IMG/VR virus record: IMGVR_UViG_3300036795_000211
Span: 9,708 to 73,707 of that record
Length of the DNA: 64,000 bases
Strand: one strand, 5' to 3'
From: a virus
Below the pieces are notes generated by a model that was given only the letters and a program-made list of their open reading frames with translations, was not told where the DNA came from and made no database searches. Made by a program: the position numbers and the translations under genes. Of this stretch, positions 50,190 through 62,536 are shown one piece after another; position 1 is the first letter of the stretch, and each line of letters begins with the position of its first letter.

Positions 50190-50290
50190 GGGTCGACGCG
50201 ACGTCCTAACGTGCTTGGACTGCGGAGCGATGGTTCCGTATCCGTTCGTTGATCGGCACGACAACCACCATTCTTCGTTGGAGGCACTCC

Positions 50291-51028
50291 GTGAACGGTT
50301 GGACCTGGTTCTTCGCGATCGTCAGCCTCTTGCTGGCAGTAATTATCGCAGTACTGACCTGGATCCTTCGCAGGGATCGGTCCAATCACCCTTCGGGCCT
50401 ATCCTTGCCGGAATCGTCCGTCCCCAGTATCCCCACCGCTGAGGTCGAGCAGCTTCGGCGTGACCTGCATGAAGCCGGTGGATCGGTCGCGCGACTGACC
50501 AAGGAACTTTCGCTGGAGCGAGAGCAGACCGGTCGAAACCTCGAGACCATTGCCAAGCGGGCCGAGGTCGAAATACAGCAACGAGTGGCGTTGGCCCGAA
50601 CGGAGCTGGAACGCGAATTTGCCGAGCGGAAACGGACTGACCGCCAGGTGTCGAACCAGCTTTCTCGAGCTGCGTTGCTGGCCAAGGTGGCGGAGCACAT
50701 GGGTCCGTTGTTCCCCGGCTTCCCGTACAACCTTAAGGAATGTCGTCACGTCGGTGAGGTATTCGATTACCTGGTCTATGAAGGGCTGGAAGCCGGCGGA
50801 GATATCTCGGTGATCTTCCTCGAGATCAAGTCCTCGGCGTCCGGGCGTACTCGCCGGGTAACCAATCCGCGGGAGAAGGCGCTCCGGGACGCAATTAAAG
50901 CGGGTCGGGTCCACTACAAGGTCTGGCAGCCGCCAAACGCCGCCGAGCTGGAAAGGCTGGCTCGGGAGGCGATCGAATCGCTGGAGGTCCCAGCGCTCAC
51001 CGAAGGAGGAGACAATGCCGATAGTTGA
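50291..51028 (+). CDS. Membrane-anchored Holliday-junction-resolvase-like endonuclease (Endonuc_Holl type)
   Basis: N-terminal TM, coiled coil, KVAEHMGPLFPGFPYN..C..VG..DYLVY..FLEIKS. Confidence 0.7.
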   Translation: MNGWTWFFAIVSLLLAVIIAVLTWILRRDRSNHPSGLSLPESSVPSIPTAEVEQLRRDLHEAGGSVARLTKELSLEREQTGRNLETIAKRAEVEIQQRVALARTELEREFAERKRTDRQVSNQLSRAALLAKVAEHMGPLFPGFPYNLKECRHVGEVFDYLVYEGLEAGGDISVIFLEIKSSASGRTRRVTNPREKALRDAIKAGRVHYKVWQPPNAAELERLAREAIESLEVPALTEGGDNADS

Positions 51029-51323
51029 GGAACCGGGTCCGGAGAAGCGAGTCCTCGGGCGACACCACGCACCACTGGGTCAGCCGATCAGCCCGTTCAA
51101 GTACACCGTAACGCGGAACGATGGCGGTAAGCCGATTCCGCTGGACGAGCCGTGCCTGGTAATCCGCGCGCAGGACGCCTTTGCGCTCGTGTTCATTCAG
51201 ATGTACATCAATCACACCCTCGATACCGTTAGTCCGGCCCTGACTAACGAGCTGCTCGCCCACCGGGAACGGATCCGGCGGTGGCAGGACGAACATCGGG
51301 ATAAGGTAAAGCTCCCTGATTGA
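51015..51323 (+). CDS. Hypothetical protein
   Basis: DEPCLVIRAQDAFA..KLPD phage family motif. Confidence 0.6.
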   Translation: MPIVEEPGPEKRVLGRHHAPLGQPISPFKYTVTRNDGGKPIPLDEPCLVIRAQDAFALVFIQMYINHTLDTVSPALTNELLAHRERIRRWQDEHRDKVKLPD

Positions 51324-51348
51324 CAAACTTCCAGCCATTCTATAGACT
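51320..51348 (+). promoter_or_regulatory. SigA-type promoter TTGACA-N17-TAGACT
   Basis: Consensus match. Confidence 0.75.
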
Positions 51349-51406
51349 GGGTAATCCAAGGGGCCGCTGCCGCCCCGCAAGGCAGCAAAGAAGGAGGTAC
51401 TCAGAT

Positions 51407-51850
51407 GTGGCGCAGCGACTAGAAGCGCATCACGGCTGGAAGGGCGACAAAGCTGGCTATCATGCGCAGCTACATCGTGTACGAAGAGCACGTGGTCGCG
51501 CCAAAGAGCACCTTTGCGTGAAGCACGCAGAGAAGGGTAAGCAGGTACGAGCGAATGACTGGGCACACGTTCACGGTGAAAGTGGCTTTGACGTGTACGC
51601 GGATTTCGTTCCGCTCTGCGATCCCTGTCACGAAGAGTACGACAATCCCACGAAGGCACGCGGTGCGAGAGTGCAACTTGCTGCCGGGAAGCTAGCCGAA
51701 CAGGACGTCATTCGTATTCGAGAACTGCTAGCGAAGAAGGTTCCGCAGCAGCGTATCGCAACGGAGTTCGGTGTCGTACAAACGGCAATTAGCAAGATTA
51801 ACACGGGTCGCACGTACGCAAACGTGGGACGAACCGAAGGAAGTGGTTAG
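51407..51850 (+). CDS. HNH-like endonuclease with C-terminal HTH
   Basis: YHAQLHRVRRARGRA..DWAH..PLCDPCH..YD; KL...V..IR..IA.EFGV..AISKI..GR. Confidence 0.75.
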   Translation: MAQRLEAHHGWKGDKAGYHAQLHRVRRARGRAKEHLCVKHAEKGKQVRANDWAHVHGESGFDVYADFVPLCDPCHEEYDNPTKARGARVQLAAGKLAEQDVIRIRELLAKKVPQQRIATEFGVVQTAISKINTGRTYANVGRTEGSG

Positions 51851-52389: not shown

Positions 52390-52773
52390 ATGCGTGTTAT
52401 CGGGGTTGACCCGGGGGCAGTATATACCGGTGTCGCGATACTGGACAGCGACGGCAAGTTCATCTACTGGAACGAGTCCGATGACCCGGTTGTCATCTGG
52501 GTCGCCATCGAAGAAGCTTGCCGTTACGGTGAAGGTGTCGTTGTCGTTGAGGACTTCCTCGGGTCCGGTCGCCGAAACGAATACACGCAACGGACCACCG
52601 AAGCACTCGGGTACATCTACCACCGCTGTCGCGAGGAAGGCATTACGGTCGAACGGGTACCGCAGCAAGCTCGACTGGCCAACGTGATGAACGTCCCGAA
52701 GGAGATATCCCGCAAGGACGAGAAAGCTGCGGCGGCCCACGCACTCTCATACCGCGAAAGGAAACGGACTTGA
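52390..52773 (+). CDS. RuvC-like resolvase
   Basis: MRVIGVDPG..TGVA, VVVEDF, KDEKAAAAH. Confidence 0.75.
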   Translation: MRVIGVDPGAVYTGVAILDSDGKFIYWNESDDPVVIWVAIEEACRYGEGVVVVEDFLGSGRRNEYTQRTTEALGYIYHRCREEGITVERVPQQARLANVMNVPKEISRKDEKAAAAHALSYRERKRT

Positions 52774-53306
52774 GTCCTAAGCGTACGGTCGATCTTACGC
52801 ATTATGCGCAGATCGCACACCGGTTGTTCTTGACGCCGGGAAAGTGCCAGCGTATCCACGGGCACTCGTTGACGATTAACCTCGAGCTGGTCGGGGAGGT
52901 GGACGGTACCGGGAAGATTGTCGGTCTCGATTTCGCCGCAATAAAGAGCGCCTTTCGGTCATTCGTGGACGCCTATCTCGATCACAGCTTGCTGCTGAAT
53001 GAGATCGACCCGTTCGCTCGTCAGCTTCTTACGAACCCGCAGTATGGCGCAGAAGGCGGAACGTGGATCAGCGAAGTCGAACCCGCCGATCTTCCCGGGT
53101 TGCGAAGGTGCGCGGGAGACCCGACCACGGAGAACATAGCGATGTGGATCGCCGAATGGGCCGCGCTAACGTTCACGGTACTCGGTCTCTATAGCGTGTC
53201 CGTCCACGTTGACGAGACCGACACCAACGGTTCCGGGTACGAATGCGCCGTGGACCACCTTACCCGTAAGCGAGAGCTCACCGATGTACTCGGGAGGTGG
53301 AAGTGA
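52770..53306 (+). CDS. queD: 6-carboxy-5,6,7,8-tetrahydropterin synthase
   Basis: AHRL, CQRIHGHS, LDH, PTTEN, ET motifs. Confidence 0.9.
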   Translation: MSPKRTVDLTHYAQIAHRLFLTPGKCQRIHGHSLTINLELVGEVDGTGKIVGLDFAAIKSAFRSFVDAYLDHSLLLNEIDPFARQLLTNPQYGAEGGTWISEVEPADLPGLRRCAGDPTTENIAMWIAEWAALTFTVLGLYSVSVHVDETDTNGSGYECAVDHLTRKRELTDVLGRWK

Positions 53307-54070
53307 TCGACTTCGAAGCGCGTCCGTCGCGTGACTGGCTGCTGGTCTCGGAGATGTTCGGTCCTACCTTTCAAGGCGAAGGGCCGTCAACCGGACAGTT
53401 GGCGATGTTCATTCGCCTCGGCGGGTGCAATCAGCACTGCGGCTTCTGTGACACGCCGCACACCTGGGTCTTCACCGATCGTCAGGTCGAACAGCATGAC
53501 CTATCGCTGGTACCGTTCAGTCCGAAGGAGGAGCTAACCCGGTACACGATTCGCGATGTCGCCGCCGAGATCATCGCGTCCGGTGTCGATCTTATCGTGA
53601 TTACCGGTGGCGAGCCACTGCTGCAAGCCGAACAGGTGGCGAAGCTAATCTCAGCGGTGAACGAGGAATCGGCACACCACTTCGAAATCGAAACGGCCGG
53701 GACGGTCTCCCCCGCGCCCCTAGTGATGTTCGAGAACGTCCGCTTCAACGTATCGCCGAAATTGGCGTCCAGCGGTAACGAGCTCGAGCTGCGCCGGAAT
53801 ATCCCGGTACTTTCCGAGCTGCGTGACTTCCCGGGTACCGCATTCAAGTTCGTAATGGGCTACGAATACGGTGCCGATCTGGCCGAAGTACTTGAGCTGC
53901 AGAAACTCGTCGGCTTCAATAACGATCGAGTCTGGCTGATGCCGGAGGGAATCACGGAGAAGGGTATTCTCGACGGAATGAAGCGGCTGTCCTCAGTGGC
54001 GTTGTTCAACTACTGGCATCTCTCCACCCGCATGCACGTACTCCTTTGGGGGAATGAACGTGGCCGTTAA
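53297..54070 (+). CDS. queE: 7-carboxy-7-deazaguanine synthase (radical SAM)
   Basis: EMFGPTFQGEG, CNQHCGFCDT, ITGGEPLLQ, IET.G, VSPK, RMH. Confidence 0.95.
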   Translation: MEVIDFEARPSRDWLLVSEMFGPTFQGEGPSTGQLAMFIRLGGCNQHCGFCDTPHTWVFTDRQVEQHDLSLVPFSPKEELTRYTIRDVAAEIIASGVDLIVITGGEPLLQAEQVAKLISAVNEESAHHFEIETAGTVSPAPLVMFENVRFNVSPKLASSGNELELRRNIPVLSELRDFPGTAFKFVMGYEYGADLAEVLELQKLVGFNNDRVWLMPEGITEKGILDGMKRLSSVALFNYWHLSTRMHVLLWGNERGR

Positions 54071-54635
54071 TCTTCGTATGCAAGCCGCCGTTGAGATACT
54101 ACTCAGCGAACTCGGGTACGACCTGTCGGATGCGCACTTCCGGCGGACCCCCGAACGCGTAGCGGAGGCACTCAACGGGTTCAGCAAGTCGCGTCACGAT
54201 CGCGCGCACGACATTCTCGATGTCTCCTTCGAGGACGGGTTCTCGAGTCTGGTACTGGTCGGACCGATCGAGTACACGAGCATGTGCGCCCATCACCTCC
54301 TACCCGTGCAGGGTAAAGCATACGTGGGTTACCTTGCCGACGGGAGGATCTGCGGACTGTCCAAGCTCGCACGGCTGGTCGATCACTACGCCAGGCAGCT
54401 TACCGTTCAGGAACGCGTTACCGACCAGGTAGCGGATGCGCTGGAGGAACAGCTCAAACCGAAGGGCTGTATGGTCGTCATTCGGGCCGTTCACGGGTGC
54501 ATGTCGATTCGCGGGGTCCAGGACCACGACGCGCAGACCACCACGTCCGCCGTTCGGGGACTGCACAAGGACTCCGATAGTGCGCGCTCCGAGTTTCTGT
54601 CCCTGGTCGGGATGCGAGAAAGGATGCTCGGGTGA
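54054..54635 (+). CDS. folE: GTP cyclohydrolase I
   Basis: TPERVA, CAHHLLP, GLSKLAR, QER, HGCM..RG. Confidence 0.95.
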   Translation: MNVAVNLRMQAAVEILLSELGYDLSDAHFRRTPERVAEALNGFSKSRHDRAHDILDVSFEDGFSSLVLVGPIEYTSMCAHHLLPVQGKAYVGYLADGRICGLSKLARLVDHYARQLTVQERVTDQVADALEEQLKPKGCMVVIRAVHGCMSIRGVQDHDAQTTTSAVRGLHKDSDSARSEFLSLVGMRERMLG

Positions 54636-55423
54636 AGCTCGCACACATCGTTCCGCACTCACTGCTGGAGTGTGCCCGCGACTCGGAGGCGTTCCTGTGC
54701 CTCTCGAACCTCGTGGTCCGCAATCCGTTCTACGCCGAATTCCATCGGCGAATGGCGCGGGAGGGTAAGCTCGTCATCCTCGACAACCCGGTACACGAGA
54801 ACGGGGAACTCGATCTCCGCGAGTGGGCCGAAGCCGCAAAGCTGATAACGCCAACGGTGGCGATTATCCCGGACGTGATTGACGATGCTAACGCCACCGT
54901 TATGTACGCTCGGGAGTTTCGTGGTGTCATTCGGGAATGGTCTCCGAGTACGCGGCTGATGGCCGTCCCGCATGGCGTGGAGCAGATCGATTTCCTTCGG
55001 TGTGCGCAGGAACTGCTTCGGCTGAAGAACCCCTCGATTCACTGGTTCGGCGTGTCCCTGGAGCGACGGTTGGACGATGACCCTTACGCGTTTCAGCGGC
55101 GGGTCCAGCGCGTACGAATGCTGACGTCGGAGCCGTCCTTTCGGTACCGCAGCATTCACCTGCTCGGCGTCTCGGAGGCAGCTTCGGAGTTCCTGCACCC
55201 CGCGTTCCTCAATGTCGCGAGTGCGGATACGTCCAAGTTCGCCGTGTGGTGGTTGAACGGCACGGCACCGCTACCCCCGTCACCGATCAAGCAGCCATAT
55301 CCGGGTCGGGCCTCCCTCGGTGGAAGTACTCGTTACTTCGACTTTGAACCGCAGGAAGCATTCCTGCGTGACCGCCTCGCCGAGTACCTCTTGGCGTGGA
55401 CCAACTACGCAATACATAGGTAG
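54632..55423 (+). CDS. Divergent TGT-fold protein (DpdA-like base-exchange enzyme candidate)
   Basis: LVILDN, IPDVI, MAVPHG, IHLLG, SADTS in TGT motif order; embedded in the que cluster. Confidence 0.7.
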   Translation: MKLAHIVPHSLLECARDSEAFLCLSNLVVRNPFYAEFHRRMAREGKLVILDNPVHENGELDLREWAEAAKLITPTVAIIPDVIDDANATVMYAREFRGVIREWSPSTRLMAVPHGVEQIDFLRCAQELLRLKNPSIHWFGVSLERRLDDDPYAFQRRVQRVRMLTSEPSFRYRSIHLLGVSEAASEFLHPAFLNVASADTSKFAVWWLNGTAPLPPSPIKQPYPGRASLGGSTRYFDFEPQEAFLRDRLAEYLLAWTNYAIHR

Positions 55424-55429
55424 GTAGCA

Positions 55430-56758
55430 GTGAGTGGAATCTTTGCCGCATCCGTTTCGTCGGATTCGGCGGGTATTCGGTCTGAGCTGAAGCTGCTTTC
55501 GCAGCGTGCGTCAGCGCGGGGGAAGGACGCAATCAAGATAGCGTCGTTCCGCGATGACGGGACCATCGGCTATGTCGGCGCAACCGGCCACGTACAGGTT
55601 GGCGTTGATCGCGCACTAACCGATGCGCGCCACTACACCCTGGTCGGGTGTGCCTACGGGGCACCGTCCGGGGCTCAGATCGAGACGATCTTCGACGTTC
55701 CGCCATTCACCAGCAAGGACTCGCAGTGGCTGGTCACGATCGATGGAATCGTTACCGGCTACACCGGGCAGCAGGTTGCCGACATTATCTCCCGGGAAGG
55801 CTGGAGTACGGTCGAGACGCTGCACGGTCAGTTCGCGATCATCGGCGTGGAGCGTTCTTCGGACGGTATCTACTGGGCGTGCAAGGCGAAGCCGCTATAC
55901 GGACTGCACCACCCGTATGACGGAATCACGATGGTCGCGTCACAGCGGGATGACCTGTACGGGTTCTACCACGAAACCCGCACTTCCTCGCCGTTCGCAC
56001 TAGAGCCGTACACGCGCGGTCGCATCTCGCGGGAAGGTACCTTCGGGTCGCACCCGCTCAATCGCAAGTCGAGTAACGGATCGCTCGTCCTTTCGGGTGG
56101 CGGACTGGATACCGCCGTAGCCGCGTGGGACAACGCAGCAACGTACTCGGAAGAGCCGACCGTACTGCTGCACATCGATTACGGCCAGAAGGCACGGGTC
56201 GCCGAATGGCACGCGACGCAGGAACTGTCGGTTCGAATGCGAAAGCACCTCGGGGTGACGACAAGTGCGATTCGGCTCAAGTTCAATCTCGGACTGCTGG
56301 CCGGCGACAGTTCACCGTTGACCGGTGACAAGGATGTCGAGTCGAATCCGCAGGCCGGACAGGCACACGAATGGTTCCCCGCACGTAACACCGTGCTGAT
56401 GTCGATGGGACTCTCGTGGGCCGAAGCGAACGGGATGGCCCGGATCGTTACCGGGATCAATATGGAGGCCGCCGGTGCGTACCCGGACAACGAGCAGGAA
56501 TGGCTGATCCGCTGGCAGTCACTGGTTCCGTATGCGGTCGGCGATTCCGTGTCGATTGATCTCGAAGCACCACTGGTCGGGATGTCGAAGAAGGACATCG
56601 TCAAGCTCGGGGACAAGCTCGGCTTTCCGTTCGAAACGTTCTCGTGGTCGTGCTACAACGGCGGGGTAATCCACTGCGGAACGTGCAGCTCATGCCGCTG
56701 TCGCCGGGCTGCCTTCGTGTCGGCCGGCGTTACCGATCCTACGGAGTACAAGGACTAA
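55430..56758 (+). CDS. queC: Gat-QueC fusion (Ntn amidotransferase-like domain plus preQ0 synthase)
   Basis: N-terminus MSGIFA..RG.DA..GQFA; C-terminus SGGGLDT, YGQ, PARN, YPD, SCY..HCGTCSSC. Confidence 0.88.
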   Translation: MSGIFAASVSSDSAGIRSELKLLSQRASARGKDAIKIASFRDDGTIGYVGATGHVQVGVDRALTDARHYTLVGCAYGAPSGAQIETIFDVPPFTSKDSQWLVTIDGIVTGYTGQQVADIISREGWSTVETLHGQFAIIGVERSSDGIYWACKAKPLYGLHHPYDGITMVASQRDDLYGFYHETRTSSPFALEPYTRGRISREGTFGSHPLNRKSSNGSLVLSGGGLDTAVAAWDNAATYSEEPTVLLHIDYGQKARVAEWHATQELSVRMRKHLGVTTSAIRLKFNLGLLAGDSSPLTGDKDVESNPQAGQAHEWFPARNTVLMSMGLSWAEANGMARIVTGINMEAAGAYPDNEQEWLIRWQSLVPYAVGDSVSIDLEAPLVGMSKKDIVKLGDKLGFPFETFSWSCYNGGVIHCGTCSSCRCRRAAFVSAGVTDPTEYKD

Positions 56759-56932
56759 TGGCGAATACGGTACCGGTGTACATTCGCATCGGGAACAGAC
56801 CTGAACGCCACGTCGGAAACGTGGTAATCGACGACCGGGTGTACACGGGCGAGGGCCCCCGCGTTGTCGCCAATCTGCTTCGCAGTGCGGCTGACGCAAT
56901 CGAAGTAGACCTACCCGAACTGGAGGACGAAG

Positions 56933-57103
56933 ATGACCCGACACACCCGGCTACAGCATAAGCTCAGCAGTTCGCACCGGGATGCTAGACGGCGTAAGCT
57001 GTCCCGGCGGTATCCCGGACCCCGCGCCCAGGAGTACAAAGCGCGGCGAATTAACGTCGAAAGCCTCTGGCAGGTCTTCTTCGGACGGAAGGCGAAGTCG
57101 TGA
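56933..57103 (+). CDS. 56 aa basic ORF (not in track)
   Basis: GGAGG RBS; stop overlaps next GTG. Confidence 0.4.
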   Translation: MTRHTRLQHKLSSSHRDARRRKLSRRYPGPRAQEYKARRINVESLWQVFFGRKAKS

Positions 57104-57249
57104 TCTGTCCCCCGTGTCGTGATGCCGGCGAAGAGACGACTCTCGGTAATACCTCGGGTGCGGAGATGTTTCACCAGCACTGCGCCGATCCGCTTACGTG
57201 TCCGTGTCAGCACAAACTAGAGTCGGTTGTCATTCAACCCGATAACTGA
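57100..57249 (+). CDS. 49 aa Cys/His-rich ORF (not in track)
   Basis: MICPPCR..H..C..CPCQH pattern seen in actinophage small proteins. Confidence 0.5.
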   Translation: MICPPCRDAGEETTLGNTSGAEMFHQHCADPLTCPCQHKLESVVIQPDN

Positions 57250-57255
57250 TAGGCT
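57227..57255 (+). promoter_or_regulatory. SigA-type promoter TTGTCA-N17-TAGGCT (near-leaderless polymerase mRNA)
   Basis: ATG 8 nt after the -10 element; no SD. Confidence 0.65.
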
Positions 57256-57263
57256 GGTTACCT

Positions 57264-59816
57264 ATGGTCAGATATCGCGCAAGTGCCAGCTCAGGGTGCG
57301 CCTCTTGCCCGTTGAAGAGCCTAGCGGGTAATCACCGTTGGGTCCCGGGTAGCGGTCCGGCGAAGGCACGCTTGGTCATTGTCGGGGAAGGACCCGGAGA
57401 GACGGAGTTGATCACCGGCAAGCCGTTCATGGGTCGCAGTGGCGAGCTGCTGAATGCCACGCTCAATGCGAATGGCTTGGCGCGTCCCGATATCTACCTG
57501 ACGAACGCCAACGAGTGCAACGTCAAGGCCACGAAGGCCTACCAGGAGGCGTGTCACGATCGTCTCTTCGGGGAGATAGGGGCGCGGGAGCCCGATCTCG
57601 TAATCACCCTCGGTAAACCGGCGTTCCAAGCGGTATGCCAGACCAGCGATTCATTGGCGAATGCGGAAGGGGCATTGCAGTGGAGCCCGACCCTCGGGAC
57701 GTGGGTATTGCCTACCTGGCACCCCGCGGCCGCCCTCCGCGCGGACTCTTTCTATCCGCCGATCGCCAACACATTCTGGCGTGCCTCCCGGTTCCTGGAT
57801 GGTACGACCCCCCTCCCGCAGCCCGGTGGCGCAAAGCGGAACTTTCGCTGGACCTTCTTCCGTTCACCGGAGGGAGCGATCAAAGGTATCCGGTACTACC
57901 TCAATCGGGCGCGGGAGAAGAAGATCACGGTCTCGATAGACACCGAGTCGTGGACGAAGATGTCCCCGTACGAGATCGCGCACAACCTGAAACCGAAGGG
58001 TAAAGGTCGACCGCATCCGGAGCGCGATGAGTGGATCATGCTCCAGCTTTACGACGGGAAACGCGCATGCGCAATCGACATGACGGCGATGAACGATGAG
58101 TCACGAAAGTGGATCAAGCGACTCATCACCTCGCCTCGGATTCTCTATACGGGTCATAACATCTGCACATATGACACCCGGGTCTTTCGCCATAATCTCG
58201 GTGTATGTCCCGCTGACGAAAGCATCCGTGATACGCTCCTCCTGGGGCTGGGACTGTCCGAAAGAGCTAGTGCAATTGGCTTGGAGCCGCTATCTCGGAC
58301 GTGGCTCAACGCTCCGGCGTATAAGCAAGGACTACGGGACAGCGGCTACCGACATCAGAAAGGACCACAGAACGACGAGCAATGGCGGCACCTAGCCAGG
58401 TATGGAGTTGACGATGTCTACAACGGATACGAGCTCAACCGCATCCTCCCAGGTATGGTGCGTGACGAAGGAACAATGGGCTTGGTTCGCAACGTCCTTC
58501 AGCCCCTCGCGCTCACGTGCGGGCGAATTGCGTCTCGTGGCCTCCCCGTTGACACCACGCAGTTCGACAACCTCCAAGAGCACTGGGGCGCAAAGGTAAC
58601 GCACTTCGCGGACCAACTAGATGCGCTGGCCACGGAAGCCGGTTTCCCGTTGGACCCCGCGGTCAAGAAGGGTGATACGTTCAACCCGAACAGTCACCCG
58701 CAATTGGCGCATCTCGCCTTCGACGTCCTGGGCTTGAGTGCAACGGACGGCGCGACAAACCGTAAGTTCACTTCGAAGTTCAATCGGGCGCGTAATCCCC
58801 GGTCAGTGGACGCTGACTTCCTCATCGGACACGAAGACACCGAGTTCTCGCAATTGATGCAGCAGTACCGCATATACTTCAAGCTATATCGTACCTACGT
58901 CCTCGGCTTGCTAAGGGAGATCGATCCCGATGGGCTCATTCACCCCGATTTCAATCTCGCCGGAACAGCCACTGGGCGGCTGGTGGTCAAGCCCCTGCTA
59001 CAGGTACTTCCGCACTACGGCGCACACCGACTTTTGGCTGACGAGGATTTCGCAACCGAGACACGTCGCCTTTTCCCTGCCCGACCGGGTTATCTTCTCG
59101 TCGCCGCCGACTTCAAGCAGCTGGAGATGCGAGTTGCTGCTGCCCTATCTGGTGACCCGCAACTTGCTCGAACACTCGAGGCTAGTGACCCCCATGCTGT
59201 AACCGCACGGTATATGTTCCAGCGGGAAGGCGTTGACGATGCCGACCGCCATGCGGCCAAGCGAGTAACCTTCGGGGTGATGTATAACCGATCGGCATTC
59301 ACGTTGTGCCGTGGTCCCCTACTGGACGTTCTCGGGGGAATCGCGATCCCGGAGGCCGTTCGGTATAAGAAGGCGCAGGAGTTCATCGATGCGTTCTGGA
59401 AGGTCTACCCGCAGTACTGGGACTGGCAGCTCGCGAAGAAGGAAGAAGCACTTACGCGCGGCGAGCTAACTACCCCGTTCGGTCGGAAGCGTCGTTGGCC
59501 GTTGATCACGCACCAGAACAAGCGAGAGATCGAGAACCAAGCGGTCAACTACCCGATCCAATCGGCGGCCTCCGATATGTGCTCAATGGCCCTGGTTCAC
59601 CTCGAGCCGGCCTTGCAGGGTGTCGGCTATCCGCTTTACACGGTACACGACCAAGTGGTAGCGGAGATCAAGGAGGAGCGGCTGGAGGACGGTATTCGGA
59701 TCATGCGTGAGGTAATGATGACCCCGTTGTTCGAAACGCACGGGGTCGCGTTTGACGTAACCGTGGAAGTCGGCCCTAACCTGGGCGACGTAAAGAAGTG
59801 GACGGTAGCAGCATGA
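57264..59816 (+). CDS. polA: Family A DNA polymerase with N-terminal family-4 UDG-like domain and 3'-5' exonuclease
   Basis: UDG4: CASC, VGEGPG, FMGRSG, TN..EC, WHPAA; exonuclease: DTE, HN..YD, YGVDD; polymerase: TATGRL, DFKQLEMR, KRVTFGVMY, VHDQ. Confidence 0.93.
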   Translation: MVRYRASASSGCASCPLKSLAGNHRWVPGSGPAKARLVIVGEGPGETELITGKPFMGRSGELLNATLNANGLARPDIYLTNANECNVKATKAYQEACHDRLFGEIGAREPDLVITLGKPAFQAVCQTSDSLANAEGALQWSPTLGTWVLPTWHPAAALRADSFYPPIANTFWRASRFLDGTTPLPQPGGAKRNFRWTFFRSPEGAIKGIRYYLNRAREKKITVSIDTESWTKMSPYEIAHNLKPKGKGRPHPERDEWIMLQLYDGKRACAIDMTAMNDESRKWIKRLITSPRILYTGHNICTYDTRVFRHNLGVCPADESIRDTLLLGLGLSERASAIGLEPLSRTWLNAPAYKQGLRDSGYRHQKGPQNDEQWRHLARYGVDDVYNGYELNRILPGMVRDEGTMGLVRNVLQPLALTCGRIASRGLPVDTTQFDNLQEHWGAKVTHFADQLDALATEAGFPLDPAVKKGDTFNPNSHPQLAHLAFDVLGLSATDGATNRKFTSKFNRARNPRSVDADFLIGHEDTEFSQLMQQYRIYFKLYRTYVLGLLREIDPDGLIHPDFNLAGTATGRLVVKPLLQVLPHYGAHRLLADEDFATETRRLFPARPGYLLVAADFKQLEMRVAAALSGDPQLARTLEASDPHAVTARYMFQREGVDDADRHAAKRVTFGVMYNRSAFTLCRGPLLDVLGGIAIPEAVRYKKAQEFIDAFWKVYPQYWDWQLAKKEEALTRGELTTPFGRKRRWPLITHQNKREIENQAVNYPIQSAASDMCSMALVHLEPALQGVGYPLYTVHDQVVAEIKEERLEDGIRIMREVMMTPLFETHGVAFDVTVEVGPNLGDVKKWTVAA

Positions 59817-60244
59817 CGAACGAGGATATTAACGTGGCCGCAGCAACGTCTCGTGACGCTACGGAGTACGCGAATCCCCTCCCAAACGAGTACGTACCGC
59901 CGGTTAACCCGAGAGCACTCGAATACTTCGGCGCAAAAAAGGTCGAAGAGCGCACCCTTCAGCTACTTGCGGGACTACCGAACGGTCAGACCGCATCTTA
60001 CGCAGTGCTGCAGAACGCCGCAATTGCGGAATTGGCACTGGAGGAGATACTCGGTGAACCGACGTGATCTATACGACCGCATCGACCATCTGGCATAACC
60101 CGCGAGAGTACCGCTGGGAGTTCGTTGACGAACGTGCTCGGGTAGTAGCGTGGATCGCCGATGAGATGCTCGCTAGGACGTATCCGGAACTACTACTGAC
60201 CCATCATAACGGCGTAATACGTCGAATCGCCTCGGAGGCATTCA

Positions 60245-60772
60245 GTGCAGACACTGCAGGTACCCGATCATCTGTTCCCCGCGCTGCAGAAGATGGTCGT
60301 GACGCTGACCAAGAAGGGGCATGACTACTCGAACTCCGATGAGGACTGGGGCTCGAACTTCGCGACCACGTCCGACCACTTCGGGATGCACCCGTGGGAG
60401 GCCGCCGATTTCAACGAACTGCAGAAGCTGGCCCGACTCCGTGCCCTTCGAAGGCGTCCACACGGTCCCCGGAACGAATCGGTCGAGGATTCGTACCTTG
60501 ACAAGGCGAATTTCGCCCTGCTGGCGTACGCGCTGTACCTACTCGCATACCCGCCGCAGCAGGAGTTCGACCTCTCGAATCCGGAAGTCACCGCAGCTGC
60601 GAAAGCAAATTTGGCGCATTCCGCCGGCGCATACGGTATCCCCCAGCGAATGACGGACACGGATGCCTACGCTCGTGGTCCGTACCAGTCCGGTGGCCGC
60701 AACGAGGTTCACCACGCAACCCCCGAGGAGCAGCGGATCCTGGCCCGTCGCGAGCAGACAGACCACACCTGA
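60245..60772 (+). CDS. Nmad1/DUF1599-like all-alpha nucleotide-modification-associated protein
   Basis: KKGHDY..NF..KLARL..NESVEDSYLD.ANF pattern. Confidence 0.65.
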   Translation: MQTLQVPDHLFPALQKMVVTLTKKGHDYSNSDEDWGSNFATTSDHFGMHPWEAADFNELQKLARLRALRRRPHGPRNESVEDSYLDKANFALLAYALYLLAYPPQQEFDLSNPEVTAAAKANLAHSAGAYGIPQRMTDTDAYARGPYQSGGRNEVHHATPEEQRILARREQTDHT

Positions 60773-60787: not shown

Positions 60788-60816
60788 TTGCCGGCACCAG
60801 GCGTCTCTGCTAGACT
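60788..60816 (+). promoter_or_regulatory. SigA-type promoter TTGCCG-N17-TAGACT
   Basis: Consensus match. Confidence 0.7.
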
Positions 60817-60840
60817 GGTGGTTGGAGAGGGAGGTGCGCG

Positions 60841-61113
60841 GTGTCAGCACTCGAGCACAAGAGGACCGCATCGAGGTACTACCGGGAAGGCCGCAAGTGG
60901 GCCCGACACGCAAAGGAATGGGCGCAGGCAGCGCGGGACACCGAAGTCAGCCTGTCGAAGGCCGAGCCCGAGGACGTTGAGTTCTACACGTCGCAGCTTT
61001 CGTCCTGGGAGAGGCTGGCCGCTAGTGCCGCCTCGTGGACCGAAGAGTGCCGCCGCCAGGCTCGATTCTATCGGGGCCTCCAGCGTGACGCCGCTAAGCG
61101 GGAGGCAGCATGA
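60841..61113 (+). CDS. Hypothetical protein
   Basis: GGAGGT RBS after promoter. Confidence 0.55.
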   Translation: MSALEHKRTASRYYREGRKWARHAKEWAQAARDTEVSLSKAEPEDVEFYTSQLSSWERLAASAASWTEECRRQARFYRGLQRDAAKREAA

Positions 61114-61243
61114 TCGACACCGACAAGCTCGCCCGAGAGATCGTGTGGCTCGCCCTGTATTGGGCAGACGGCGATCCCAAGAAGCTGGACGAAGCCGAAG
61201 AGATATTGCGCCGGACCCCGGTGCTCGAACACAAGGAGAAGTA

Positions 61244-61771
61244 ATGGCCGCCAAGATCCATACCGTTGCGAAGTCGATGAAGGAGGTGGAGTGCACGAAG
61301 TGCCACGACACGATCCCCGTGGGCTCGCCCTACCAGTACTTCAAGCCCGGATATCGCGGGAGGCTGAAAGTGCGCCGGTGTATGAAGCCGGACTGCACCC
61401 CGAAGCGTTCCGAGCTGGACACCAGTAAACTGGCGGAGGTATACGCGGCCCAGGAGGACGCCACGGACACGATTGCGAATGCGACAACGATCGCCGATGT
61501 CACGGAGGCCGTTGACGCCGTTCACGAGGAAGCGGAACGCATCCAGCAGGAATACCAGGACGCGGTCGATGCCTCGCCGATGATGTCCGGTCAGATGGAG
61601 GACCGGATGAGCGCCCTCGACACCTACATCAGTGAGCTCGAAGGGTTCGACCCCGGAGAGACCGAGGAACTCGGTGACGACCCCGATGACGAGGCCCAAG
61701 CCGAATACGACGAAGCACTCAGCCGGGCCCGTGACGAGGCCCTCGACCTTATTGGATCATTCGAGTTCTAA
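61244..61771 (+). CDS. Hypothetical Zn-ribbon plus acidic helical protein
   Basis: CTKC..I..G..Y..C; AAGGAG RBS. Confidence 0.6.
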   Translation: MAAKIHTVAKSMKEVECTKCHDTIPVGSPYQYFKPGYRGRLKVRRCMKPDCTPKRSELDTSKLAEVYAAQEDATDTIANATTIADVTEAVDAVHEEAERIQQEYQDAVDASPMMSGQMEDRMSALDTYISELEGFDPGETEELGDDPDDEAQAEYDEALSRARDEALDLIGSFEF

Positions 61772-61792: not shown

Positions 61793-62536
61793 ATGGCTAC
61801 CGATTCCGCGATCAACCGCCTTGCAAAGATGCTCCAGTACGCCGAGCGTGGCGACACCCCGGGTGAGCGAGATGCCGCAACTGAGAAGGCACTCGCATTC
61901 GCCAAGAAGCACCAGATCGACATTGCCGTCGCGATGTCCAAGAAGGGGACGGACCACTCCGTAAAGAAGGAGAAGACGCGGTTCGCGATTCCGCTCAAGC
62001 GACCGATGATGCAGCAGATGACGCTCGCGACCCACGTGTTCCGCTTCGCCGGGTGCCAGGTGCTTCGCTTCGGGCGGGGTCGTGACCTTCGTCTGGTCGC
62101 ATTCGGCTTCGAATCGGACATTGACACCGGGCGGATGCTGTTTGCGTCCCTGGTCGTGCAGGCCGAGCGCCGCTGCGCAGCCGAATGGAAGGCGCACCTC
62201 GCGGCCCCCGTGTATTTCCAGGAGAAGCCGCGTACCTTCCGCCGCGGTTTCTACGAGCGCTATGCCGATGAGATCTTCTGGCGCCTCGACGCCATCTCCC
62301 GCGCCGCCGAAAAAGCGGCCGAACTTGACGCCCCCGGTACCGGCCTCGCTATCCGCAGTAAGGACGACGAGATGAAGGCCTGGATCGCCGAGATGTTCGG
62401 GACACTGGGCAAGGCGCGTAAGCAGACCGGTACCCGCCTTTCCTCCGCGGGTAGGAGCGCGGGGGCCCGAGCCGGTCGCGAAGCAGATCTCGGCCAGAGC
62501 ACCCTTGCCAAGGAGCACCCGGGGATTGAGGGCTGA
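61793..62536 (+). CDS. DUF2786-like protein
   Basis: INRLAKML..AE..TPGE.DAA..KA..KHQID N-motif; FRRGF; G..AG..ADLG. Confidence 0.7.
   Translation: MATDSAINRLAKMLQYAERGDTPGERDAATEKALAFAKKHQIDIAVAMSKKGTDHSVKKEKTRFAIPLKRPMMQQMTLATHVFRFAGCQVLRFGRGRDLRLVAFGFESDIDTGRMLFASLVVQAERRCAAEWKAHLAAPVYFQEKPRTFRRGFYERYADEIFWRLDAISRAAEKAAELDAPGTGLAIRSKDDEMKAWIAEMFGTLGKARKQTGTRLSSAGRSAGARAGREADLGQSTLAKEHPGIEG

Follow-up and report, generated by a model that had tools for sequence, protein, structure and literature searches.

A minimal DpdA3-type 7-deazaguanine module in a soil phage, with hints from its relatives of base exchange on free nucleotides

Introduction

Is a 7-deazaguanine base placed in phage DNA by exchange in the finished double helix, or is the modified nucleotide made first and incorporated by the replicative polymerase? 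The question is raised by a locus of IMG/VR virus record IMGVR_UViG_3300036795_000211, of which a stretch of 64,000 nucleotides (bases 9708-73707, hereafter the window) was analyzed. In this locus, genes for the synthesis of a 7-deazaguanine precursor surround the gene of a small protein related to tRNA-guanine transglycosylases (TGT), designated P0001, and precede the gene of a DNA polymerase fused to a uracil-DNA glycosylase (UDG) domain. The use of 7-deazaguanines in DNA is widespread among phages as a means of countering restriction and certain CRISPR nucleases. We know of no explanation for the mechanism by which some phages replace every G.

An original prediction, made from the sequence alone, described the locus as a guanine-modification cluster and raised the possibility of incorporation at the nucleotide level. 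We report here that the type of system, a module built around the transglycosylase subfamily DpdA3, is already known, and that gene fusions in the relatives of P0001 hint at a swap on free nucleotides, against the published model of insertion after replication.

Results

The 7-deazaguanine operon

Positions 52770 to 56758 of the plus strand form a single operon located in the early arm of the phage. Its first four genes overlap by 4 to 17 nt, and the fifth starts 6 nt after the fourth. The gene set named by the original prediction is present in full, at the same coordinates and on the plus strand. The five genes of the operon are as follows.

52770-53306, plus strand: QueD (6-carboxytetrahydropterin synthase, PTPS family); PF01242, E 1.6e-21; 10-nt overlap with the QueE gene
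53297-54070, plus strand: QueE (7-carboxy-7-deazaguanine synthase, radical SAM); Pfam Radical_SAM, E 1.7e-11
54054-54635, plus strand: FolE (GTP cyclohydrolase I); PF01227, E 1.1e-56
54632-55423, plus strand: P0001, 263 residues, predicted DpdA3-type TGT-fold base-exchange enzyme
55430-56758, plus strand: P0003, 442 residues, Gat-like domain fused to QueC; Pfam QueC, E 1e-41

The matches of QueE in the PDB were exclusively 7-carboxy-7-deazaguanine (CDG) synthases (5TGS, E 4.5e-14; 6NHL; 4NJG), and alignment with the complemented QueE of phage 9g gave 34% identity, the CxxxCxxC motif being in register. Homology predicts that FolE, QueD, and QueE convert GTP into CDG, from which the QueC domain of P0003 would produce preQ0. 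The same gene order was found in ten related IMG/VR contigs and is therefore not a chance arrangement. The preQ0 pathway is thus complete and is accompanied by a TGT-fold base exchanger, as expected for a 7-deazaguanine DNA-modification module. We consider it highly probable that the locus is such a module, of the DpdA3 type.

Fold and predicted active site of P0001

The structure of P0001 was modeled with AlphaFold (AF2) from an alignment of 57 homologues, giving a TIM barrel with a predicted local distance difference test (pLDDT) score of 95.3. The first 50 matches of the model in Foldseek were all tRNA-guanine transglycosylases (TGT or ArcTGT), each with a probability of 1.0. In exhaustive comparisons with VIA-align, the best scores were obtained with ArcTGT (Z 16.6), TGT (Z 16.0), and the DNA preQ0 insertase of PDB entry 7UI4, a bacterial DpdA (Z 15.9), versus at most Z 14.7 for unrelated TIM barrels. 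Searching the PDB with the P0001 sequence alone returned noise only; a search with the family profile gave 7UI4 as the best match, the VPHG and SADTS motifs being aligned with VAHG and SIDST, respectively. After subtraction of a 22-residue tag, the Asp of the SIDST motif of 7UI4 is Asp256. The following positions of P0001 are considered for catalysis.

54779-54799, plus strand: LDNPVHE motif (residues 50-56)
54872-54874, plus strand: codon of D81 (PD motif), predicted base-recognition Asp; invariant in 57 sequences
54971-54976, plus strand: H114-G115 (VPHG), matched with His181-Gly182 of bacterial DpdA through alignment with the VAHG motif in 7UI4
55226-55228, plus strand: codon of D199 (SADTSK), predicted nucleophile; invariant, in register with the Asp of the 7UI4 SIDST motif

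P8, D51, E56, D81, G179, and D199 are invariant across the 57 family sequences, and H114 and G115 are nearly so. The LDNPVHE motif had been noticed because it stands where DpdA and TGT enzymes usually have DSG; it is indeed present, although its D51 preserves the Asp found in DSG. The consensus of the wider family at this position is ILDxxAFE, of which the Phe is replaced by H55 in P0001, and the motif is collinear, in a weak alignment, with LDSGAF of the DpdA1 of phage 9g. In bacterial DpdA, roles have been assigned to Asp95, Phe99, His181-Gly182, the nucleophile Asp256, and Asp130, the latter in base recognition (PMC10164549). By motif order, D51 and D81 are the putative counterparts of Asp95 (acid/base catalysis) and Asp130, respectively. 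In the proposed reaction, a double displacement of the TGT/DpdA type, P0001 would replace the guanine carried by a deoxyribose with a 7-deazaguanine base, D199 acting as the nucleophile, D51 as the acid/base, and D81 together with H114 reading the base.

P0001 thus shares with bacterial DpdA 7UI4 and the tRNA-guanine transglycosylases the TIM-barrel fold (Z 15.9-16.6) and the Asp/Asp/His-Gly/Asp set, but sequence identity is only about 13%. It also differs from these enzymes by the lack of a zinc motif (three scattered Cys and no CxCxxC...H) and of room for a large insertion or partner domains. With 263 residues versus 413 for 7UI4, P0001 is about 150 residues shorter and therefore cannot accommodate the large insertion of the bacterial enzyme, which its authors ascribed to DNA binding (PMC10164549). 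The founding DpdA3 proteins are equally short. The isoelectric point was not discriminating, with a family median of 5.6 and equally acidic DpdA1 proteins.

Relationship of P0001 to DpdA3

The profile of the 57-sequence family was compared by hhalign with members of the known DpdA subfamilies. It matched the founding DpdA3, CGPG_00065 of phage phiST, over residues 1-258 of 259 (probability 99.7%, E 1.9e-25), as well as BSTP10_071 of a Bacillus phage (99.3%) and CPT_0056 of Campylobacter phage CP220 (E 2e-19). Since the match to the phiST founder is full length, P0001 is assigned by sequence comparison to the DpdA3 type. This settles the place of the protein among the DpdA subfamilies, which the original prediction had left to be established, and qualifies its description as atypical, which holds in comparison with DpdA1 and DpdA2. 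For the DpdA1 of phage 9g (317 residues, LDSGAF), the profile alignment had a probability of only 2%.

Membership in DpdA4 was considered and rejected. The sole Pfam match of P0001 is DUF6610 (E 3.4e-4), at 20.8 bits versus a gathering score of 27; this family corresponds to DpdA4, reported to be confined to archaeal viruses (PMC10516641). Matches to DUF6610 at E<0.01 were found for 14 of the 57 family members. The PD, VPHG, HLLG, and Asp motifs of P0001 are collinear with those of the DpdA4 of Halovirus HVTV-1 (gp69), a protein of 386 residues with an acidic N-terminal extension, but the hhalign probability between the family profile and gp69 was only 53% (E 1.3e-4, 114 columns).

The family is very large, with 983 representative clusters, almost all of them metagenomic, retrieved at E<=1e-3 from a set of 1.8 billion representatives. 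In a quickly built tree, the deep nodes of which are unresolved, the clade of P0001 (six distinct sequences, SH-aLRT 100) lies on a long branch. This clade is so divergent that tblastn leads to no cultured phage: no match was obtained in 50,697 phage records with P0001 by tblastn, or with the 8-kb region by megablast, and cultured relatives were found by tblastn only through more distant members of the DpdA3-like family.

The locus resembles the phiST and CP220 systems by the full-length homology of the base exchanger, by its minimal size (258-263 residues), and by the clustering of FolE, QueD, and QueE. It differs from them by the presence of QueC, with a degenerate Gat-like domain; preQ0 is therefore expected rather than the CDG-derived bases of phiST and CP220. 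Further differences are the absence of a MazG or HD gene, of a P-loop kinase, and of homologues of the two small proteins that phiST encodes between the MazG and DpdA3 genes. The LDNPVHE and VPHG motifs of P0001 contrast with LDNGAGD and CPQG in the published DpdA3 system, and the window phage departs from published DpdA3 phages by its high GC content, soil origin, and UDG-PolA polymerase.

A further parallel among cultured phages is provided by the Bacillus subtilis BSTP10/BSTP5/BSP7 group and Weizmannia phage Youna2, in which a DpdA3-like gene is located directly upstream from a UDG-exo-PolA gene, with QueC, QueD, and FolE genes nearby, as in the window phage. Unlike the window phage, these cultured phages have, abutting the DpdA3-like gene, a gene for a kinase resembling YorR (BSTP10_072, E 3e-20 with the kinase hidden Markov model (HMM)). 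The records of the BSTP10 and Youna2 phages do not annotate the DpdA3-like gene as a 7-deazaguanine gene. BSTP10_071 (L097:5929-6717), which has homologues in BSTP5, BSTP8, BSTP12, BSP7, and BSP19, is annotated as 'polynucleotide kinase', and the GenBank labels of the DpdA3-like genes of these B. subtilis phages are 'polynucleotide kinase', 'integrase/recombinase', 'NadR', or hypothetical. Records of these phages do not seem to identify them as 7-deazaguanine phages.

Since its fold is common to tRNA transglycosylases, P0001 might instead target tRNA, or a protein, or the operon might merely boost the supply of queuosine precursor in the host. Cap10, a TGT-like protein of CBASS, attaches a 7-deazaguanine to a protein. 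Its structure (9NTN) is among the fold matches of P0001, but its Z score of 14.0 is no better than that of unrelated TIM barrels. DNA modification in this uncultivated phage is a prediction from genes, a point in favor of such targets. On the other hand, P0001 is homologous over its full length to DpdA3, the sole TGT-like protein of phages with experimentally established 7-deazaguanine substitution in DNA, it has no counterpart of the C-terminal domains by which TGT and ArcTGT bind tRNA, and the polymerase gene is tightly coupled to the base exchanger across the family. We regard a tRNA or protein target, or a role limited to queuosine supply, as very improbable.

The Gat-QueC fusion and the predicted product

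P0003 consists of a QueC domain (residues 219-432) preceded by an N-terminal domain of 215 residues. The SGGxDS-type motif and the C-terminal CxxCxxC of the QueC domain align with those of phage 9g. Homology links the N-terminal domain to the class-II amidotransferase (Gat) domain of the 9g Gat-QueC, and that of Vibrio phage BA3 also aligns. In phage 9g, the genes for FolE, QueD, and QueE are likewise clustered with that of a Gat-QueC fusion (Hutinet et al., 2019, PMC6884629), and its Gat-QueC together with DpdA gives rise to archaeosine (dG+) in E. coli (PMC6884629). The original prediction had linked the fusion to dG+. The fusion is present, but the formation of dG+ is doubtful. Whereas the Gat domains of 9g and BA3 begin with MCSIF and contain HNG, so that 9g retains Cys1, the Gat-like domain begins with (M)SGIF and contains IDG in P0003, P0210 (in which the start is VSGIF), L011, and L012. 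Ser is thus found in place of Cys1 and Asp in place of the oxyanion Asn, leaving neither the catalytic Cys nor the Asn-Gly motif. The stretch aligned with DSAAI of 9g is also shortened in the lineage of P0003, and the Pfam family GATase_7 was matched at an E value of only 0.13. In the closest relatives of the locus (L003-L010), QueC is plain (227-240 residues) and lacks the Gat domain. To our knowledge, class-II amidotransferases need Cys1.

Judged from these substitutions, a working glutaminase in P0003 is unlikely. The most likely product of the module is predicted to be dPreQ0, in preference to dG+, given the absence of Cys1 and of the oxyanion Asn from the Gat-like domain; dG+ and dADG are lesser options. 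An archaeosine product, which would change the identity of the base and no other part of the proposed pathway, could be defended on two further grounds: retention of the Gat-like domain in four members of the lineage implies some selection, and Ser is possible as the N-terminal nucleophile of other Ntn hydrolases. Weighed against the altered residues, the shortened region, and the plain QueC of the nearest relatives, this outcome appears unlikely.

The polymerase gene

A gap of 0.5 kb separates the P0003 gene from the following gene.

57264-59816, plus strand: DNA polymerase, 850 residues, with a family-4 UDG domain (28-161), a 3'-5' exonuclease domain (254-395), and a family A polymerase domain (469-841)

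The E values for the three domains in Pfam were 1.4e-23 (UDG), 4e-4 (3'-5' exonuclease), and 3.6e-61 (DNA_pol_A). The UDG domain aligns with the Thermus UDG of PDB entry 1UI0 (E 4.3e-22), the GEGPGE and HPA motifs and the four Fe-S Cys residues being in register, and is probably a genuine uracil glycosylase. Fusions of this type were already known, since PDB entries for family-4 UDG are labelled "phage SPO1 DNA polymerase-related". The polymerase of phage 9g, in contrast, belongs to family B.

The generality of the association was assessed in a set of 90 IMG/VR loci containing DpdA3-like genes, the neighbours of which were scored by HMMs. A homologue of the polymerase was present in 69 loci (with the UDG domain in 62), and in 49 of these 69 its start was located between -150 and +500 nt from the stop codon of the DpdA3-like gene. 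Homologues were located downstream from the DpdA3-like gene in 69 of 89 loci. A polymerase next to DpdA3 is therefore common across the family and no peculiarity of this phage. There is no evidence that the enzyme is specialized for 7-deaza-dGTP.

Neighbours and fusions of DpdA3-like genes

Genes of the 7-deazaguanine pathway are frequent in the 90 loci (QueE in 60, FolE in 58, QueD in 56, and QueC in 45), and the YhhQ/Vut_1 transporter family is represented in 18. In some loci, e.g. L030:7652-8500, FolE is replaced by FolE2 (type I GTP cyclohydrolase, PF02649, E 3e-71).

Two kinds of nucleotide-metabolism enzymes recur beside the base exchanger. A P-loop kinase resembling deoxynucleoside kinases (dNK) and thymidylate kinases was detected in 18 of the 90 loci and was fused to, or abutted, the DpdA3-like gene in 14. 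Among the 150 best representatives of the family, 13 are proteins of about 435 residues in which kinase and DpdA3-like domains are fused. Of the solved structures, YorR of SPbeta is the closest to the kinase domain (E 7e-23), with thymidylate and deoxynucleoside kinases coming next. A gene for a MazG-type pyrophosphohydrolase was found just upstream from the DpdA3-like gene in 40 of the 90 loci. In addition, the metagenomic DpdA3-like protein P0193 (417 residues) carries at its C-terminus PF18909, the N-terminal domain of dATP/dGTP diphosphohydrolases (E 1e-14). Taken singly as queries, the fusion proteins P0099 and P0193 led to no related loci. The order of these genes is MazG, one gene, P-loop protein, and DpdA3 in phiST; HD plus P-loop protein, DpdA3, and P-loop protein in CP220; and kinase, DpdA3-like, and UDG-PolA in BSTP10. 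phiST and CP220, for both of which complete replacement of G has been reported, conform to the pattern of the family.

Several variants of the locus were observed. MazG and a dNK/thymidylate-kinase-like domain are combined in single proteins at L046:6388-7359, 2.6 kb upstream from the DpdA3-like gene, and at L078:9132-10010, abutting it. At L023:6445-11871 (also L019, L022, L026, and L027), the genes encode DNA polymerase III alpha, a 120-residue protein, MazG, the DpdA3-like protein, and YhhQ/Vut_1. No que biosynthesis gene was found within 10 kb of L023-type loci, which read like a salvage-only version taking its base from the host. In loci with a fused or abutting kinase (L016:7548-8852, L021, L025, L031, L034, and L035), FolE, QueD, and QueE are present, QueC was not detected, and a CDG-derived base is therefore expected instead of preQ0, as in phiST and CP220.

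Free nucleotide or finished DNA

In the proposed pathway, P0001 would exchange the base on a free deoxynucleotide or deoxynucleoside (deoxyguanosine monophosphate (dGMP) or deoxyguanosine (dGuo)) before replication. The modified product would then be phosphorylated, in the window phage by host kinases, and the adjacent UDG-exo-PolA polymerase would build the modified nucleotide into DNA. We infer that phage DNA containing dPreQ0 in place of dG would resist restriction enzymes that read guanine. The set of neighbours found in the family is the gene signature of such a route through the nucleotide pool, comprising conversion of deoxynucleoside triphosphate (dNTP) to monophosphate (dNMP), base change, re-phosphorylation, and polymerization. 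We put the probability of this full reading, including the pre-replicative step, at roughly 0.5. We propose more tentatively, at a little short of even odds, that DpdA3-type proteins including P0001 are the first TGT-fold enzymes to act on mononucleotides or nucleosides, that the modified G enters DNA via the dNTP pool, and that this phage is a minimal form relying on host kinases. Literature searches for a nucleotide-level route to 7-deazaguanine found no paper proposing it.

The same module and product are also conceivable with an exchange performed in finished double-stranded DNA after replication, the kinases and MazG proteins of other loci serving nucleotide supply or house-cleaning. Polynucleotides are the substrates of every TGT or DpdA characterized biochemically, P0001 has the same catalytic residues, and post-replicative insertion was proposed in 2023 for all DpdA subfamilies (PMC10516641). 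An enzyme needing only a free base and DNA would also fit the lack of a kinase and of a dNTP pyrophosphatase in the clade of the window phage, and a position beside the polymerase in the replication module is expected for an enzyme acting on DNA as well. Exchange after replication does not readily explain why DpdA3-like proteins should be fused with dNMP- or deoxynucleoside-kinase-like and dGTP-diphosphohydrolase-like domains, or why the order MazG, kinase, DpdA3 recurs in unrelated phage types. The residues of the zinc motif are missing from P0001, and 263 residues leave no room for the insertion proposed to bind DNA. Moreover, the study that proposed post-replicative insertion reported complete replacement of G with DpdA3, could not show activity of DpdA3 on DNA in E. 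coli, and detected free ADG nucleoside in CP220-infected cells (PMC10516641). Post-replicative exchange is in our view a serious possibility, although somewhat short of probable.

Exchange on free nucleotides has, for its part, to be weighed against a number of observations in addition to the published model and the precedent of characterized enzymes. All the support for it is comparative. The HMMs for kinase and MazG detected neither enzyme among all 702 open reading frames (ORFs) of at least 40 residues in the complete genome of the window phage. Pfam searches of 30 early-arm ORFs likewise revealed no nucleotide-metabolism enzyme, the only matches being a PD-(D/E)XK nuclease, AAA_24, Endonuc_Holl, and DUF7168/DUF2786. 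Neither kinase nor MazG was found in the clade formed by the window phage and L003-L012, and no HD gene was detected in the window phage or its five nearest relatives. Across the family, roughly half of the loci have neither a kinase nor MazG within 10 kb, and the 90 loci are not independent samples, as 12 sets share identical DpdA3-like domain sequences. Without an enzyme removing dGTP, a route through the pool would lead to partial replacement only. Finally, the loci also share AAA_24, DUF669, PD-(D/E)XK, and SNF2 genes, and the synteny with the polymerase may have been inherited with a common replication module rather than reflect function.

The window locus is thus a minimal variant, with preQ0 genes, DpdA3, and a polymerase, but neither kinase nor pyrophosphatase. 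A phage-encoded dNTP phosphohydrolase and dNMP kinase beside the base changer are present in many relatives and not in this phage. The nucleotide-level incorporation envisaged in the original prediction accordingly draws on the kinase, MazG, and MazZ-like fusions and neighbours of the family and on the polymerase located directly downstream, whereas the phage itself lacks both accessory enzymes. We lean towards exchange on free nucleotides, giving the family-wide fusions more weight than the enzymes missing from the window phage.

P0002 and surrounding genes

Downstream from the polymerase gene, a gap of 0.4 kb precedes a gene that had been labelled DUF1599/Nmad1-like and proposed to encode a dNTP pyrophosphatase.

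60245-60772, plus strand: P0002, 175 residues, helical, Nmad1/DUF1599-like; conserved core at residues 8-100 approximately

The gene is present, but the label is weak. DUF1599 was matched in Pfam at E 0.034 and 14.9 bits, below the cut-off of 25, and the Nmad1 resemblance comes from look-alikes in the ESM Atlas (TM score of 0.69 to an Nmad1 cluster, feature score of 0.95), whose clusters carry PF07659 in part and which serve as leads only. A literature search on Nmad1 returned nothing relevant. The pyrophosphatase assignment found no support: hhalign comparisons of P0002 with the MazG of phiST, a MazG alignment, and the PF18909-bearing P0193 gave probabilities of 0.1-1%, and the AF2 model (pLDDT 68.5), too uncertain for a fold to be assigned, had no Foldseek match at E<=0.001 and only helical-hairpin matches in VIA-align (Z<=5.4). 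Searching the PDB with the P0002 profile gave no match.

The 13 homologues of P0002 share a helical core of about 100 residues, in which K24, D27, Y28, N38, F39, K61, R64, E78, D82, and D86 are invariant. Four of the 13 are encoded on contigs that also carry P0001 homologues, and P0002 follows PolA in six of the ten related loci. A functional link between P0002 and the base exchanger is plausible, if unproven. As a lead only, the C-terminal helical extension of P0180, a metagenomic DpdA3-like protein of 361 residues, aligns with the P0002 family (probability 52%, E 1.4e-4); P0180 may be a fusion of DpdA3-like and P0002-like domains. Directly after P0002, an ORF of 327 residues (60788-61771) matched nothing in Pfam or PHROG and is without a homologue in the ten related loci. 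It is followed at 61793-62536 by a gene for a DUF2786 and DUF7168 protein (phrog_421), which is kept in L006 and L011 downstream from the polymerase and Nmad1-like genes.

Just upstream from the que operon, three nuclease genes follow one another.

50249-51028: archaeal-type Holliday-junction-resolvase-like endonuclease; PF10107, E 8e-24
51320-51850: HNH endonuclease-like ORF; PHROG matches
52390-52773: RuvC-like resolvase; its stop codon overlaps the start of the QueD gene

The 73,707-bp source record has direct terminal repeats and is rated complete. It is that of a tailed phage: the minus strand of the window encodes an HK97-type major head protein, a portal protein, and a large terminase subunit, and the plus strand encodes helicases and a primase. 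The phage is uncultivated, from soil, and virulent-looking, with a GC content of about 60% in the window and no tRNA genes found. Promoter and terminator scans were at or under the expectation from shuffled sequences. The only sequencing run containing the phage is one short-read DNA run of a soil metagenome, probably its source; no RNA run and no long-read run are listed among the runs that contain it. Cultured phages are all distant, with at most 39% identity for the capsid protein and 26% for the polymerase.

Discussion

The route proposed for the DpdA3 family follows the logic of two known systems for the replacement of a base in phage DNA, those of T4 (dCTPase, dCMP hydroxymethylase, and dNMP kinase) and of Z-genome phages (MazZ, PurZ, DatZ, and DpoZ), cited here as an analogy only (PMC8342488). 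As in these systems, a dNTP phosphohydrolase, a base changer that would act on mononucleotides, a dedicated kinase, and a polymerase gene stand side by side. The DpdA3 family differs in that the base changer would be a TGT-fold transglycosylase, for which action on mononucleotides has no precedent, and the window phage differs further in having neither the phosphohydrolase nor the kinase.

With P0001 placed in DpdA3, this subfamily now reaches high-GC soil phages as well as an uncultivated family of very large size. The stripped-down locus of the window phage shows the minimal working set of the module, whichever mechanism holds. The fusions and neighbours found in its relatives make the question of the substrate directly testable in cultured Bacillus phages, and the BSTP-type phages of B. 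subtilis provide convenient laboratory models. If the route through the nucleotide pool is true, the enzymes of this family would be new tools for the enzymatic synthesis of 7-deaza-dNTPs.

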